DNA of 62,991 bases, filler included, from Deltaproteobacteria bacterium (GTDB lineage Bacteria; JAEEML01), in the NCBI GenBank assembly GCA_016283195.1. It is 3 parts of 3 records of this genome, joined end to end, with 100 filler letters (N's around TTAATTAATTAA, not from the genome) between each part and the next. Parts side by side here need not be neighbours in the genome. Positions count along the whole stretch, not along the records: positions 31,924 to 58,351 come from JAEEML010000093.1; 2 more parts are not named here. The stretch is one strand, 5' to 3'. Shown piece after piece: positions 31,824-58,451 of this stretch. The number at the start of each line of letters is the position of its first letter. Position 1 is the stretch's first letter. The notes under the pieces were generated by a model that did not search any database, was not told the DNA's origin, and worked only from the letters and a program-made list of their open reading frames with translations. The position numbers and the translations under genes were made by a program.

Positions 31824-31923
31824 NNNNNNNNNNNNNNNNNNNNNNNNNNNNNNNNNNNNNNNNNNNNTTAATTAATTAANNNNNNNNNNNNNNNNNNNNN
31901 NNNNNNNNNNNNNNNNNNNNNNN
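31824..31923. other. Artificial contig linker
   Basis: 44 N + TTAATTAATTAA (stops in all six frames) + 44 N. Confidence 0.95.
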
Positions 31924-46525: not shown

Positions 46526-47171
46526 ATGGCTAATGAAGAACCTTATTCACAAGAAGAAATAATCCATTTAACCCCAGAGCAGCGTGCCACCATCACCGTC
46601 ACCAACGACTATGTTTTCCGCTGCCTGACCTCACCTCCTAAGTTATTGAATTTTTAGCTAAATCGCCCCTCCCCACAGTGGGGATGGGCCAATCTTCATG
46701 AATTTACAAATATTTTGTGGGGTGAGGTCGGAAATAGAGAGCAAAAAAGTTTTAACAGATGACCTGGGTTTCCATTTTCTGGAGCTCACAAAGCTTAAAG
46801 ATTGTGCTACTATTGATGGTGAGCTACGCGAGTGGCTCAATTTCTTCCGGCATGGGCACGAGGAGGATTATATGGTTAGCGGAGCTTATCAGGCGGTAGC
46901 CGATGCCAATAGCTGGTTTGAGAATTTTAAAGCCAATGACTATATGAGCAGCAAAGCCTTTCAAAGAGCCAAGCACCTGCGCGATGAGGCCGCTATTCGC
47001 AAAGCCGGCTGAGAAGATGGCCGGGAAGAAGGCCTAACAGAAGGTAGGGCAGAAGGTAGGGCAGAAGCAATGCTTGAGCTTGTAAAAAGTAAACTGCTTT
47101 CCGCCCCCGAAGCGGCGAGGCGTCTTGGCATCTCTGAGGCAGAGTTCAATAAACTCCTAGTGCGCTCATAA
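46526..47171 (+). pseudogene. Disrupted Rpn-family (PD-(D/E)XK nuclease/putative transposase) gene
   Basis: The N-terminal piece has NDYVF and then a stop. A middle piece reads TDDLGFHFLELTK...EWLNFF. An in-frame TGA at 47010-47012 precedes EDGREEG..EGRAEGRAE...AARRLGISE. Confidence 0.75.
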
Positions 47172-47365: not shown

Positions 47366-48265
47366 ATGAGCAATTTTACTAAAATCTGTCTTATTGTTTC
47401 TGCTCTTTCTCTCACCGCTTGCGGCGGCCATCAGCTGCGCGTCAAAGCCAACGCTGATGGCACCAGCAGCATAGTTTGCACCGACGGCTCGTCATACACC
47501 ATTCAAAGCACTAATAATGGTCAAGGTGACACTTCCCAGAAAGATTGTGCTGGAGGCTATTACGGTGAGCAATGCGAGAAGCAGTGTCCACTCAATAATA
47601 ACATTTATTGTTATGGTTATGGAAGCTGCCATGATGGCAAGCAGGGCACGGGTTGTGTATGCAATGTAGATTGGTTAAATGCAGATTGCAGCTTTATAAA
47701 ACCGGCATTTGGTTCTTTGGTAGATGATCGCAGCGGAGCAAGTGTTACTTATAAGACAATAAAAATCGGTGGTAAGCTTTGGATGGCCGAAAACCTGCGC
47801 TATGCTAACGGCACCAAGGGAACAGATTATTTTTCTGCTGATGGTAAGGCCGAAAACGATGAACAATATGGCTATTTATATACTTGGGATGCGGCAACAG
47901 ATGCTTGCCCCAGCGGCTGGAGACTACCAAGTAAAGATGATTTTGAAGAGTTATTAGATATAGTGTATCTAGCCAGAACCAGTACTTCAGAGACCCAGGC
48001 TCTTATGGCCCAAAGCCCGGATTGGGCCAATTATATTGAGGAGGAAGGTGGTGATGATTTCTCCTTTGGCGCCCTGCCCGCCGGCTACTACTACGGCGGC
48101 AATTACTACAGTTTCGGTTACTACGCCCGCTTCTGGTCGGCCACGGAGTACGAGTACCATAGCATCAACGCCTACATCCTGTACTTAGGTAATGGCGATG
48201 CTAATGTGGGCATCAGCTACAAGGATAGCGCCTCCTCCGTGCGTTGCCTCAAGGACTCTCCGTGA
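47366..48265 (+). CDS. FISUMP (Fibrobacter succinogenes major paralogous) domain lipoprotein with EGF-like modules; probable DGR target
   Basis: Lipobox LTAC; YKTIKIGGKLWMAENL, YGYLYTW, CPSGWRLPS, ALPAG, FWSAT and SVRCLKD motifs. Confidence 0.88.
   Translation: MSNFTKICLIVSALSLTACGGHQLRVKANADGTSSIVCTDGSSYTIQSTNNGQGDTSQKDCAGGYYGEQCEKQCPLNNNIYCYGYGSCHDGKQGTGCVCNVDWLNADCSFIKPAFGSLVDDRSGASVTYKTIKIGGKLWMAENLRYANGTKGTDYFSADGKAENDEQYGYLYTWDAATDACPSGWRLPSKDDFEELLDIVYLARTSTSETQALMAQSPDWANYIEEEGGDDFSFGALPAGYYYGGNYYSFGYYARFWSATEYEYHSINAYILYLGNGDANVGISYKDSASSVRCLKDSP
48068..48265 (+). other. Candidate DGR variable repeat (VR)
   Basis: NNC/NNT codons sit between invariant anchors. All 12 Tyr codons here are TAC, versus 12 TAT and 2 TAC in the rest of the gene. 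Confidence 0.7.
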
Positions 48266-48275
48266 GCAGGCGCCC

Positions 48276-48350
48276 GGACCTCTCCTCCTAACTCATTGGA
48301 ATTTTATGAAAATCGCCCCTCTCCCATGGAGGGAGGGGCTCCGCTTAAAG
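48276..48350 (+). repeat. 75-bp REP-like dispersed repeat, copy 1
   Basis: Reverse complement matches 57950-58024 with 8 mismatches in 75; internal imperfect hairpin at 48315-48339. Confidence 0.85.
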
Positions 48351-48502
48351 TATAACCATCTAAAATATATACCGCCACATTTTTGAGCCCCTCGCTGTTT
48401 GTAAAAACGGAGAGGGGCGAGCGGCAAAAATTGCTTCAGATTTTCGGGGTGAGGGCCATTTGGAAGAATAAAGAGAGGGCTGGGGTGAGGAACGCAGCGG
48501 GA

Positions 48503-56699: not shown

Positions 56700-57893
56700 A
56701 TGAAAAGAATCTGCTCATATACCTTACTCAGCGCGCTTACAGCCCTGACCTTCACTGCCTGTGAGCACATGCCCGATGACGAAGACTTACGCCAGGAATT
56801 TGGGCTTATCGGCTGCAAAGTTTCTGCCGGCAGTGATAGTAAAGGGATTGTCGTCTGTAGCGACGGTAGCCGTTTTGACGCGGCAAGCGACCATAACGGC
56901 AGCAGCTGTTCCTTCTCCGCAGGGAGCGACGGCAGCGGCACTATGGCCTGCTCCGGGAGCAAAAATTACAGCCTCAGCAATGGCTTTGAAAATATACCGG
57001 GCACCGAGTGCAAAGTATCACTCTATCGTGATAATAATAACAGAGAGCACGTAGAAATTGAGTGTCATCACAATGGTTATCATTGCAACAGCATTGAAGC
57101 CAAGAGCGGCCCCATCGCGGTCACCTGCGGCGATGCCGAAAATACCAAATATAGTTTCAACGATGGTAAAAACGGCCTTAGCGGCCACTGCCAGCTCTTT
57201 GCCAACGGTGATACTACCGGCAAAATACTCTGCAGCGACGGGGCGATTTTTGCCATGAACGGCGGCTATGACGGCCAGTGTTCCGGCGGCTACAGCGGGG
57301 CAAGTTGCAATGAATGCGCTCTTAAAGAGGGCGCAAGCGGCACCCTTAAAGACAGCGAGGGCAAGGAATATAAAACCGTTGTCATAAATTGCCAAACCTG
57401 GATGGCCGAAAACCTGGCCACCGCCACCGGCCGCGACGGCAGTGAGCTCAAATGCTATAAAAAGAACAAAAAATATAAAGAGCAATACGGCTGCCTTTAC
57501 ACTTGGTCTGATGCCCGCAAGGCCTGCCCTACCGGCTGGCACCTGCCGGCGAAAAAGGATTTTGACGATTTGCTAGCGGCTGCCGGTACCAATGCGGCCG
57601 ATCGCTCCCAGAATTTACGGGCCGCCAGTTTTGATGGCAACGATAAACTCAAGTTTGCGGCGCTTCCCGGCGGCTACCATACATACATCTTCGATAAATA
57701 CGAACATGTTGACGATATCGGCCTTTTCTGGTCAGGAACTGAGCAGATTAACGGCATTACCGACGCTTACGCCCTTTCGGTTCATCCTGCTTACGTAGAG
57801 CATGGTGATCCTGACGTGCACATGCCAGAAGAGGCAGTAGTTGTTAGTTTCGATAGACCCGACGGCATTTCGGTGCGCTGCATTAAAGACTAA
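56700..57893 (+). CDS. FISUMP domain lipoprotein with N-terminal Cys-containing beta-repeats
   Basis: Lipobox FTAC; repeated C...DG...I.C.DG modules; YKTVVI..TWMAENL, YGCLYTW, CPTGWHLP and SVRCIKD motifs. Confidence 0.88.
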   Translation: MKRICSYTLLSALTALTFTACEHMPDDEDLRQEFGLIGCKVSAGSDSKGIVVCSDGSRFDAASDHNGSSCSFSAGSDGSGTMACSGSKNYSLSNGFENIPGTECKVSLYRDNNNREHVEIECHHNGYHCNSIEAKSGPIAVTCGDAENTKYSFNDGKNGLSGHCQLFANGDTTGKILCSDGAIFAMNGGYDGQCSGGYSGASCNECALKEGASGTLKDSEGKEYKTVVINCQTWMAENLATATGRDGSELKCYKKNKKYKEQYGCLYTWSDARKACPTGWHLPAKKDFDDLLAAAGTNAADRSQNLRAASFDGNDKLKFAALPGGYHTYIFDKYEHVDDIGLFWSGTEQINGITDAYALSVHPAYVEHGDPDVHMPEEAVVVSFDRPDGISVRCIKD

Positions 57894-58351: not shown

Positions 58352-58451
58352 NNNNNNNNNNNNNNNNNNNNNNNNNNNNNNNNNNNNNNNNNNNNTTAAT
58401 TAATTAANNNNNNNNNNNNNNNNNNNNNNNNNNNNNNNNNNNNNNNNNNNN
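58352..58451. other. Artificial contig linker
   Basis: 44 N + TTAATTAATTAA + 44 N. Confidence 0.95.

Follow-up and report, generated by a model that had tools for sequence, protein, structure and literature searches.

Diversity-generating retroelements (DGRs) are known systems that rewrite chosen codons. Whether such an element wrote the tail of one chromosomal surface lipoprotein, and whether it is writing there still, is the question raised by the locus described here. The gene belongs to the FISUMP (Fib_succ_major) family and lies in a window (the whole stretch of DNA that was analysed) of 62,991 nucleotides from the Deltaproteobacteria bacterium genome JAEEML01 (GCA_016283195.1). The window consists of contigs C134, C136 and C148 of this metagenome-assembled genome (MAG), joined by N spacers at 31824-31923 and 58352-58451, with the gene on C136; since the spacers join unrelated contigs, distances across them are meaningless. 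The MAG itself comprises 3.22 Mb in 190 contigs and is estimated from marker genes to be 100 % complete.

An original prediction had held that the last codons of the gene form a DGR variable region, a remote target of a template repeat and a reverse transcriptase (RT) encoded elsewhere. The codon pattern of the tail, the mosaic age structure of the genes that share it, the fold of the modelled domain and the failure to find a retroelement core were each observed directly. From these we infer that 48065-48275 was very probably written by a DGR, whether that element has since been lost or is still at work, and that in the genome as assembled the region is now, rather likely, an orphaned and static one.

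The codon pattern of the tail

The gene changes its codon usage towards its 3′ end. Among the last 66 codons all 12 tyrosines are encoded by TAC and none by TAT, whereas the 234 codons upstream hold 2 TAC and 12 TAT (Fisher p=9.5e-6), exactly as first counted. The tail is also richer than the upstream part in GC (0.57 vs 0.45), in GC at third positions (GC3, 0.79 vs 0.40) and in third-position C (C3, 0.61 vs 0.26), and is poorer in A (0.20 vs 0.28). Position 48068 is in frame with the FISUMP open reading frame (ORF). The three fixed anchors that had been described, GCC CTG CCC GCC GGC, TTC TGG TCG GCC ACG GAG and TCC GTG CGT TGC CTC AAG GAC, are present, and they recur codon for codon in paralogs, such that the other FISUMP genes expected to share them do exist.

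In the codon alignment of these paralogs the scaffold codons are identical, and between them stand some 25 NNC/NNT codons with variation in the first two positions only, the C or T at position 3 being kept column by column. The three cassettes of equal length (those of C136, C126 and C187) have variable columns at codon positions 1, 2 and 3 numbering 22, 21 and 8 of 60 each, and 25 of their 33 variable codons differ in the first two positions alone; with six cassettes the corresponding counts are 30, 30 and 16 of 60. Of 15 cassette pairs, 14 have a non-synonymous divergence (dN) above the synonymous one (dS). The pair C136 and C126, compared over 62 codons, has 26 non-synonymous differences as against 3 synonymous ones, with many codons changed at both positions 1 and 2. 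The variable codons lie within the last 60 residues of the lipoprotein. Among the 26 columns with an invariant residue, there is no A-containing codon wherever the residue can avoid adenine, and within the FISUMP gene A-containing codons for A, G, P, V, L, S and R number 5 of 33 in the tail and 35 of 98 in the part before it (p=0.03). The variation at positions 1 and 2 that had been predicted among paralogs is present and strong. It shows that diversification has happened; it is no proof that diversification is ongoing in this genome.

In the history proposed here, a DGR would have reverse-transcribed a template RNA rich in AAC and AAT codons, misreading its adenines, and the mutated cDNA would have replaced the 3′ end in at least six FISUMP genes whose sequences otherwise diverge. 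The outcome would be identical, adenine-free scaffold codons amid some 25 NNC/NNT codons whose first two positions have been randomised. This would yield a family of lipoproteins that share a fold and differ in the face they bind with, here as a variable tip on a chromosomal surface lipoprotein. Later, with the DGR core absent, the cassettes would have drifted slightly through indels and synonymous C/T changes.

A young cassette on older genes

A blastn search of the tail against its own genome gave its closest matches on C126 (85 %), C187 and C18 (both 79 %, the latter truncated where its contig stops) and C96 (78 %), and every match of at least 100 nt falls at the 3′ end of an open frame. 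A scan of metagenome contigs for exact anchors yielded six loci. These include three of the genome's own contigs, a 2165-nt contig of the same metagenome assembly that lies outside the bin and carries a further cassette (L016), and a contig from a sister assembly (L020). The start of the shared DNA depends on the partner: it falls at about 48065 against C126 and at about 48047 against L016, and against the latter the match extends 10 nt beyond the stop codon. In all, at least six near-identical cassettes sit on otherwise very diverged FISUMP genes of one metagenome.

Among six such genes the proportion of synonymous differences (pS) is 0.08-0.26 in the tail, compared with 0.62-0.79, which is saturated, in the upstream domain. 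The pair C97 and C136 shows the reverse, with the closest gene body (upstream dS 0.20) and a distant tail (dS 0.66). The low pS of the tails against the saturated upstream values, together with this reversed pair, implies that the tail DNA is much more recent than the genes in which it sits and was replaced separately from those genes.

Two further loci were set aside, as each has only an 18-mer anchor in common with the family: L018 is an unrelated frame of high GC content, and L022, the one GTDB match, is a FISUMP gene from Fibrobacterota whose tail is another.

The MAG contains 117 FISUMP domain matches, many of them in tandem multi-domain genes (for example C95:9064-13627, C86:1485-3728 and C25:21791-23449). 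The TAC-rich, GC-rich tail occurs in a subset of single-domain genes, on C136, C126, C187, C96, C18, C97, C31, C116, C2, C92, C28 and others; the tandem-domain genes are mostly without it. L016:126-790 and L020 (reverse strand) share 627 identical bases, a stretch that takes in the second half of a FISUMP gene with its tail and continues for a further 130 nt downstream. Towards the 5′ end the two diverge abruptly, with 7 differences in 33 nt and then no alignment, suggesting that the front of the gene was swapped. Truncated fragments that hold the tail only, the front of the gene being absent, are found at C108:3226-3324, C72:5601-5749 and C110:192-392. The first of these has the same GC hairpin after the stop as C126 and lies about 2.6 kb from a fragment of a UG26 RT.

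The protein and its predicted fold

The protein has a putative signal peptide with a lipobox, a Cys-rich EGF-like stretch and a single FISUMP domain (residues 117-297). It is a member of the FISUMP / Fib_succ_major domain family, as both family profiles match above their curated cut-offs: Pfam Fib_succ_major PF09603 with 93.5 bits (cut-off 33.9; 2.6e-26) and TIGR02145 with 132.2 bits (cut-off 41.65; 3.1e-38). Weak Pfam matches to EGF_TEN and Lcl_C (DUF1566) were seen in addition. The N-terminus, MSNFTKICLIVSALSLTAC, which ends in LSLTAC, fits a lipobox when judged by eye against the consensus, and the C-terminus carries the cysteine of an SVRC motif. A lipoprotein signal and conserved cysteines are given as features of the FISUMP/Fib_succ_major domain family in the portion of PMC5758913 drawn on here.

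A sequence search of the PDB with the lipoprotein gave no match. In an AlphaFold model, residues 117-299 have a predicted local distance difference test score (pLDDT) of 94.3, and the best structural match of the modelled domain is TvpA (2y3c), a DGR variable protein of Treponema denticola, with Z 10.3 and a root mean square deviation of 3.6 over 153 aligned residues. Further matches are the C-terminal domain of Lcl (8q4e, Z 8.6), TaqVP (Z 7.9) and Mtd (Z 7.6), along with many C-type lectin domains (Z 6-7.6). The top match in Foldseek is the Legionella Lcl C-terminal domain, TvpA being the top match in the VIA comparison. On the model, the FISUMP domain is predicted to be a C-type-lectin fold with the variable residues in its C-terminal part. 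Codon pattern, fold and neighbouring genes together uphold that part of the original prediction which placed a DGR-type variable region in the C-type-lectin-fold FISUMP domain of a chromosomal, non-phage lipoprotein.

Search for the retroelement core

An RVT_1 search of the whole MAG found three RT genes only, on C156, C172 and C108. None is in the window, which agrees with the earlier statement that neither template repeat nor RT lies near the gene. The RT on C156 is RT_UG26 (PADLOC 9.6e-151, complete) and the copy on C108, cut by the contig end, is also UG26-class. The two (C156:5230-6438, or L009:1111-2319, and C108:3-572, or L011) are paralogs, and upstream of each lies a gene of about 160 aa that weakly matches an RT-associated COG2852 protein; the portion of PMC9226505 drawn on here describes UG26 RTs as sometimes paired with a COG2852 nuclease. 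The third gene, C172:9809-11149 (L010:1108-2448), encodes a 446-aa UG-like RT of no clear class, whose best PADLOC match is RT_UG26 (5.3e-30), and sits between a protein with an MXAN_5187 C-terminal domain and a multi-pass membrane protein.

The best NCBIfam and PDB matches of the three RTs are group II, Drt2, Drt3a and Cas6-RT. With Brt, the RT of phage BPP-1, as query against the MAG, the best E was 1.1e-5. Where Brt reads GSLTSQ the aligned RT of C172 reads GSPVAN, that is, without SQ. A further Brt match, C25:2378-2629 (E 0.023, three stops), was rejected as an RT, there being no RT motifs in any frame by eye. A DGR-class RT was thus not found in the MAG by the RVT_1, PADLOC, NCBIfam, PDB and Brt searches, although an incomplete assembly cannot prove absence. 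Avd (PF05635) had no match in the MAG at E<=1; this protein is not used by all DGRs.

The template repeat was sought in the MAG by blastn with the variable region, by blastn with a script-inferred template (22 AAY codons, 38 % A, 83 % identical to the tail) and by a scan for AAY density, and was not found. The scan revealed no AAY-dense, FISUMP-like (FWSATE-type) copy. Among the best 25 of 37 matches to the inferred template there were only known variable-region loci, led by C126 (87 %), and none of the six loci in the scan of metagenome contigs is a template. With no A-rich copy, DGR-class RT or Avd found in the assembly, the expectation that template and RT exist elsewhere gained no support.

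Individual candidates for the template were rejected as well. C126 closes a 251-aa FISUMP frame, and it has A at 13 of its 29 mismatches and a base other than A at 16. The fragment C108:3226-3324 is not A-rich and reads as a truncated tail. A match upstream of the C172 RT (C172:11392-11415, E 6.7) lies inside the ORF of the MXAN_5187-domain protein and was taken as chance.

Collections beyond the genome gave no better result. Two of the anchors had no match among viral contigs (0 and 0), apart from 13 chance matches. The latter are 13 contigs with the 18-mer GGCGCCCTGCCCGCYGGC that show no extended similarity and are put down to chance, in DNA of 54-71 % GC; some of these high-GC viral contigs (L023-L035), in which the 18-mer encoding G-A-L-P-A-G is exact, may nevertheless hold lectin-fold tails of other DGR targets. 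Phage and plasmid collections had no match. Nor was there a match among 30 relatives, which were kin of the same domain only, the genome's own phylum group containing only the genome itself. Among 296 Fibrobacterota genomes centred on L022 there was no DNA match to the tail at E<=1e-12 and none to P0010, a sister lipoprotein, at E<=1e-60, an empty answer that is uninformative.

Is the tail still changing?

The tail is covered by Logan contigs assembled from other sequencing runs. One (X2) spans 47993-48234 and another, from a different study (X4), spans 48184-48400, each with 0 differences, such that no variation of the tail was observed across these runs; parts of the gene that the runs leave uncovered are uninformative. 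Two divergent pieces from a further run (X1) are the tails of L016 and C126 and not a template. Run contigs of at least 80 % likeness include paralog tails and no A-rich copy, and the tails of L016 and L020, from two assemblies, are identical. The indels and the synonymous sites that differ by C/T only indicate, in addition, that the cassettes have not all been recently overwritten from one template. With the core absent, the cassettes drifted and the copy identical in every other run that covers the region, an orphaned, frozen variable region is the most likely state of the tail. An assembly with neither template copy nor DGR RT, and run contigs with no variation in the tail, are also largely the observations that had been named beforehand as grounds for rejecting the original prediction.

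A number of points weigh against an origin in a DGR, or against the tail having come to rest. Several third-position differences between cassettes are of the C/T-only kind and not derived from A, and there are indels of one or two codons (L016 -1, C96 -1, C18 -2). In view of these, one template is insufficient, and several templates or later drift must be assumed. With no template found, the signatures of a DGR origin are indirect ones. The run contigs have a depth of 2-4 and report the majority allele only, and X1 and X2 are possibly source samples. The division of the MAG into 190 contigs, with L016 left unbinned, means that a DGR cassette could be missing. Finally, a sister lipoprotein gene with a tail of the same cassette family shows variation restricted to that tail: P0018 and P0121 differ at 18 of 49 tail residues and by one indel, compared with 2 of 289 residues elsewhere. 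Such a pattern suggests that, measured against the divergence of strains, the rewriting was recent.

The tail variation of the sister gene was seen at the protein level, in other public assemblies. P0018, P0121, P0122, P0123 and P0010 carry three different tails on near-identical bodies, and P0121, P0122 and P0123 have one common tail despite 6-7 differences in their bodies. The first 33 residues of P0122 and P0123 are those of the lipoprotein considered here. A gene of the P0018 type was not found in the MAG (best match 50 % identity). In a protein search, the exact sequence of the C136 lipoprotein was the sole member of its 90 % cluster and no allele of the exact gene was found; the next-best match (57 % identity) is to a paralog within the genome itself, on C56.

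These points raise the possibility, which we regard as doubtful, that the tail is an active remote target, rewritten in trans by a functional DGR on unassembled or unbinned DNA or on a mobile element that some members of the population carry. All the signature evidence fits an active element equally well, and remote targets are documented for cellular DGRs in the portion of PMC5758913 drawn on here. Several FISUMP tails lie at contig ends of the fragmented MAG (the end of C18, the start of C97), L016 shows that members of the family were left outside the bin, and the differences in the sister gene are limited to its tail. However, template and DGR RT were not found in a MAG estimated to be complete, the anchor scan of a metagenome collection that contains the source assembly gave variable regions only, and no A-rich copy appeared among the run contigs of at least 80 % likeness, even though the inferred template is 83 % identical to the tail and would fall within that limit. 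The unchanged tail in X2 and X4 and the neutral drift and indels of the cassettes also tell against continued rewriting, as does the absence from C136 of the GC hairpin found just after the stop codon of C126, C187, C28 and C108.

A more elaborate course of events, in which a gut bacterium without a DGR of its own holds at least six DGR-written lectin tips and truncated tail-only fragments, and still has the tips changed by a visiting, trans-acting DGR of a mobile element or phage, or by cassette shuffling between full genes and silent fragments, is improbable. If true, it would amount to variation in two stages, with retro-mutagenesis making diversity and recombination deploying it.

Possible origins without a DGR

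It is quite improbable that no retroelement was ever involved and that the tails belong to a paralog family shaped by gene conversion at 3′ ends, diversifying selection on binding codons and local codon bias. The 117 FISUMP matches would provide ample substrate for conversion, the indels and synonymous changes between cassettes are paralog-like, and the parts of a DGR were not found. Contiguous conversion tracts, however, would homogenise the interleaved variable codons too, and could not produce interleaving at the level of single codons. Selection alone would need a very large non-synonymous excess (26 vs 3 between C136 and C126) with position 3 staying C or T, and the complete avoidance of adenine in scaffold codons where possible is a further obstacle, as is the TAC/TAT ratio of 12/0 against 2/12 inside one gene, which is not the codon bias of the genome.

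That a UG26-class RT or the RT of C172 does the rewriting, or that recombination with truncated, silent tail fragments moves the variation between genes, is very improbable. In its favour, the two UG26-class genes and one other are the sole RTs present, the distance from a tail fragment to the UG26 RT fragment on C108 is about 2.6 kb, additional tail-only fragments occur on C72 and C110, and the 627 nt at the 3′ ends of L016 and L020 are identical although their 5′ parts differ. Against it, none of the RTs has an A-rich template nearby, the UG26 locus of C156 is without FISUMP-like sequence, the fragments are few and not close to the tail (63-78 %), and UG26 is a UG/Abi class 2 RT for which the portion of PMC9226505 drawn on here reports no link to templated mutagenesis.

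The end of the gene and its surroundings

The coordinates of the tail, the gene and the adjoining features are collected in Table 1.

Table 1. Features in and around the FISUMP lipoprotein gene of contig C136 (positions along the window).
Feature	Position	Strand	Description or basis
FISUMP (Fib_succ_major) lipoprotein gene	47366..48265	+	299 aa; ORF call and profile matches
Variable-region cassette	48065..48275	+	stretch common at DNA level to otherwise diverged paralogs
Hypervariable core	48086..48235	+	NNC/NNT codons varying at positions 1-2 between invariant adenine-free scaffold codons
Conserved 3′ block, TCC GTG CGT TGC CTC AAG GAC TCT CCG TGA plus 10 nt	48236..48275	+	placed where a DGR initiation of mutagenic homing (IMH) site would be
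GC-rich hairpin of a dispersed repeat family	48315..48339	+	9-bp stem, -17.8 kcal/mol; blastn
Upstream neighbour, PD-(D/E)XK (PDDEXK_2) transposase-like fragment	46698..47012	+	PF12784 2.5e-07, profile positions 134-224 of 229 only

An end of the IMH type is a conserved 3′ block with a GC hairpin or cruciform behind it. The part of the 3′ block that ends in TGA is identical in C187 and L016, and the 10 nt beyond the stop match L016 only. A GC hairpin lies directly after the stop in C126, C187, C28 and C108; by inspection there is none at this place in C136, and L016 has, by eye, at most a weak 5-bp stem.

The hairpin that had been reported about 50 nt past the stop of the C136 gene is real and belongs to a dispersed repeat with 36 blastn matches (self included) on 27 contigs. 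Being so dispersed, it is not specific to the FISUMP gene and is uninformative about a DGR. It is probably an element of the repetitive extragenic palindromic (REP) type or a terminator, and not DGR-specific. The repeat (window 48270-48345) is about 50 nt long with a 9-bp GC hairpin of the GCCCCTCCC...GGGAGGGGC type, and often lies just 3′ of genes. The 6-nt repeat GAGTACGAGTAC at 48146-48157, originally taken for a duplication, reads GAG-NNC-GAG-NNC. At this site paralogs have GAG-AAC-GAG-GAC and GAG-CGC-GAG-GGC; as they differ at the NNC codons, there was no duplication event, and two variable codons are equal by chance.

The flanking genes encode an ABC-2/ABC_transp_aux protein, a DUF4340 protein, a ROK kinase, an FG-GAP/ASPIC protein and the PDDEXK_2 fragment. 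From their domain assignments, the neighbours of the FISUMP gene are chromosomal genes of housekeeping type, with no phage gene among them. Another FISUMP gene, a distant one, lies in the window at 57357-57890 (C136:25434-25967) within a 406-aa frame. It has a longer tail, without the GC-rich, C3-rich composition of the cassette family.

Comparison with known systems

In gut bacteria that degrade fibre, the FISUMP proteins form one of the largest paralog families. If the tail of the C136 gene is indeed an orphaned variable region, retroelement mutagenesis would have made a subset of FISUMP tips, which were retained although the retroelement was not. A route by which FISUMP families may grow is thereby suggested: they would diversify, fix the variants and then lose the engine. 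Pipelines that find DGRs through their RTs would miss such orphan products. Should the template be found later, the targets, at least six with different gene bodies, would offer a natural system for studying the rules of targeting in trans.

One close parallel is provided by the ‘category d’ or CLec2 targets, such as Legionella LdtA (Wu et al. 2018, PMC5758913). In the portion of that study drawn on here, the tails of Fib_succ_major, DUF1566 and DUF823 proteins make up this category, which accounts for 14 % of 372 DGRs, and remote targets are documented. The C136 protein resembles them in being a surface lipoprotein whose C-terminal variable region forms part of a lectin fold of the FISUMP/DUF1566-like type, in its hypervariable NNC/NNT codons, in its weak Lcl_C (DUF1566) match and in its structural match to the Lcl C-terminal domain. 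Unlike these targets, which are there defined by a matching template and RT, the C136 tail had neither in the genome or the collections searched.

In Bordetella phage BPP-1 (AY029185), the mechanism proposed for the tail is established for Mtd, its template repeat and Brt, and Mtd is among the structural matches of the FISUMP domain. The BPP-1 cassette differs in being phage-borne, with a single adjacent target and with Avd, template and Brt all present, and Brt aligns weakly to the RTs of the MAG (E 1.1e-5 and worse). The DGR of Treponema denticola, with TvpA and seven non-adjacent targets according to the portion of PMC5758913 drawn on here, is similar to the C136 family in that one family of cassettes is placed on dispersed chromosomal genes. 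Treponema, in contrast to the C136 genome, keeps its RT and template, and TvpA is of the FGE-type (formylglycine-generating enzyme) lectin subclass, with 11 % sequence identity to the FISUMP domain.

Paralogs of cyanobacterial variable proteins have been described that retain remnant homology between template repeat and variable region with no proximal RT, and it has been proposed that the diversifier was lost after fixation of variants (Vallota-Eastman et al. 2020, PMC7517822, in the portion drawn on here). Like the FISUMP genes, these are dispersed genes that bear the marks of a DGR away from any RT. The genomes in that account differ from that of C136 in still holding a DGR elsewhere, and fold subclass and phylum also differ. 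Nevertheless, paralogs with DGR marks far from an RT are already in print there, and in this respect the tail of the C136 lipoprotein is of a kind already known.

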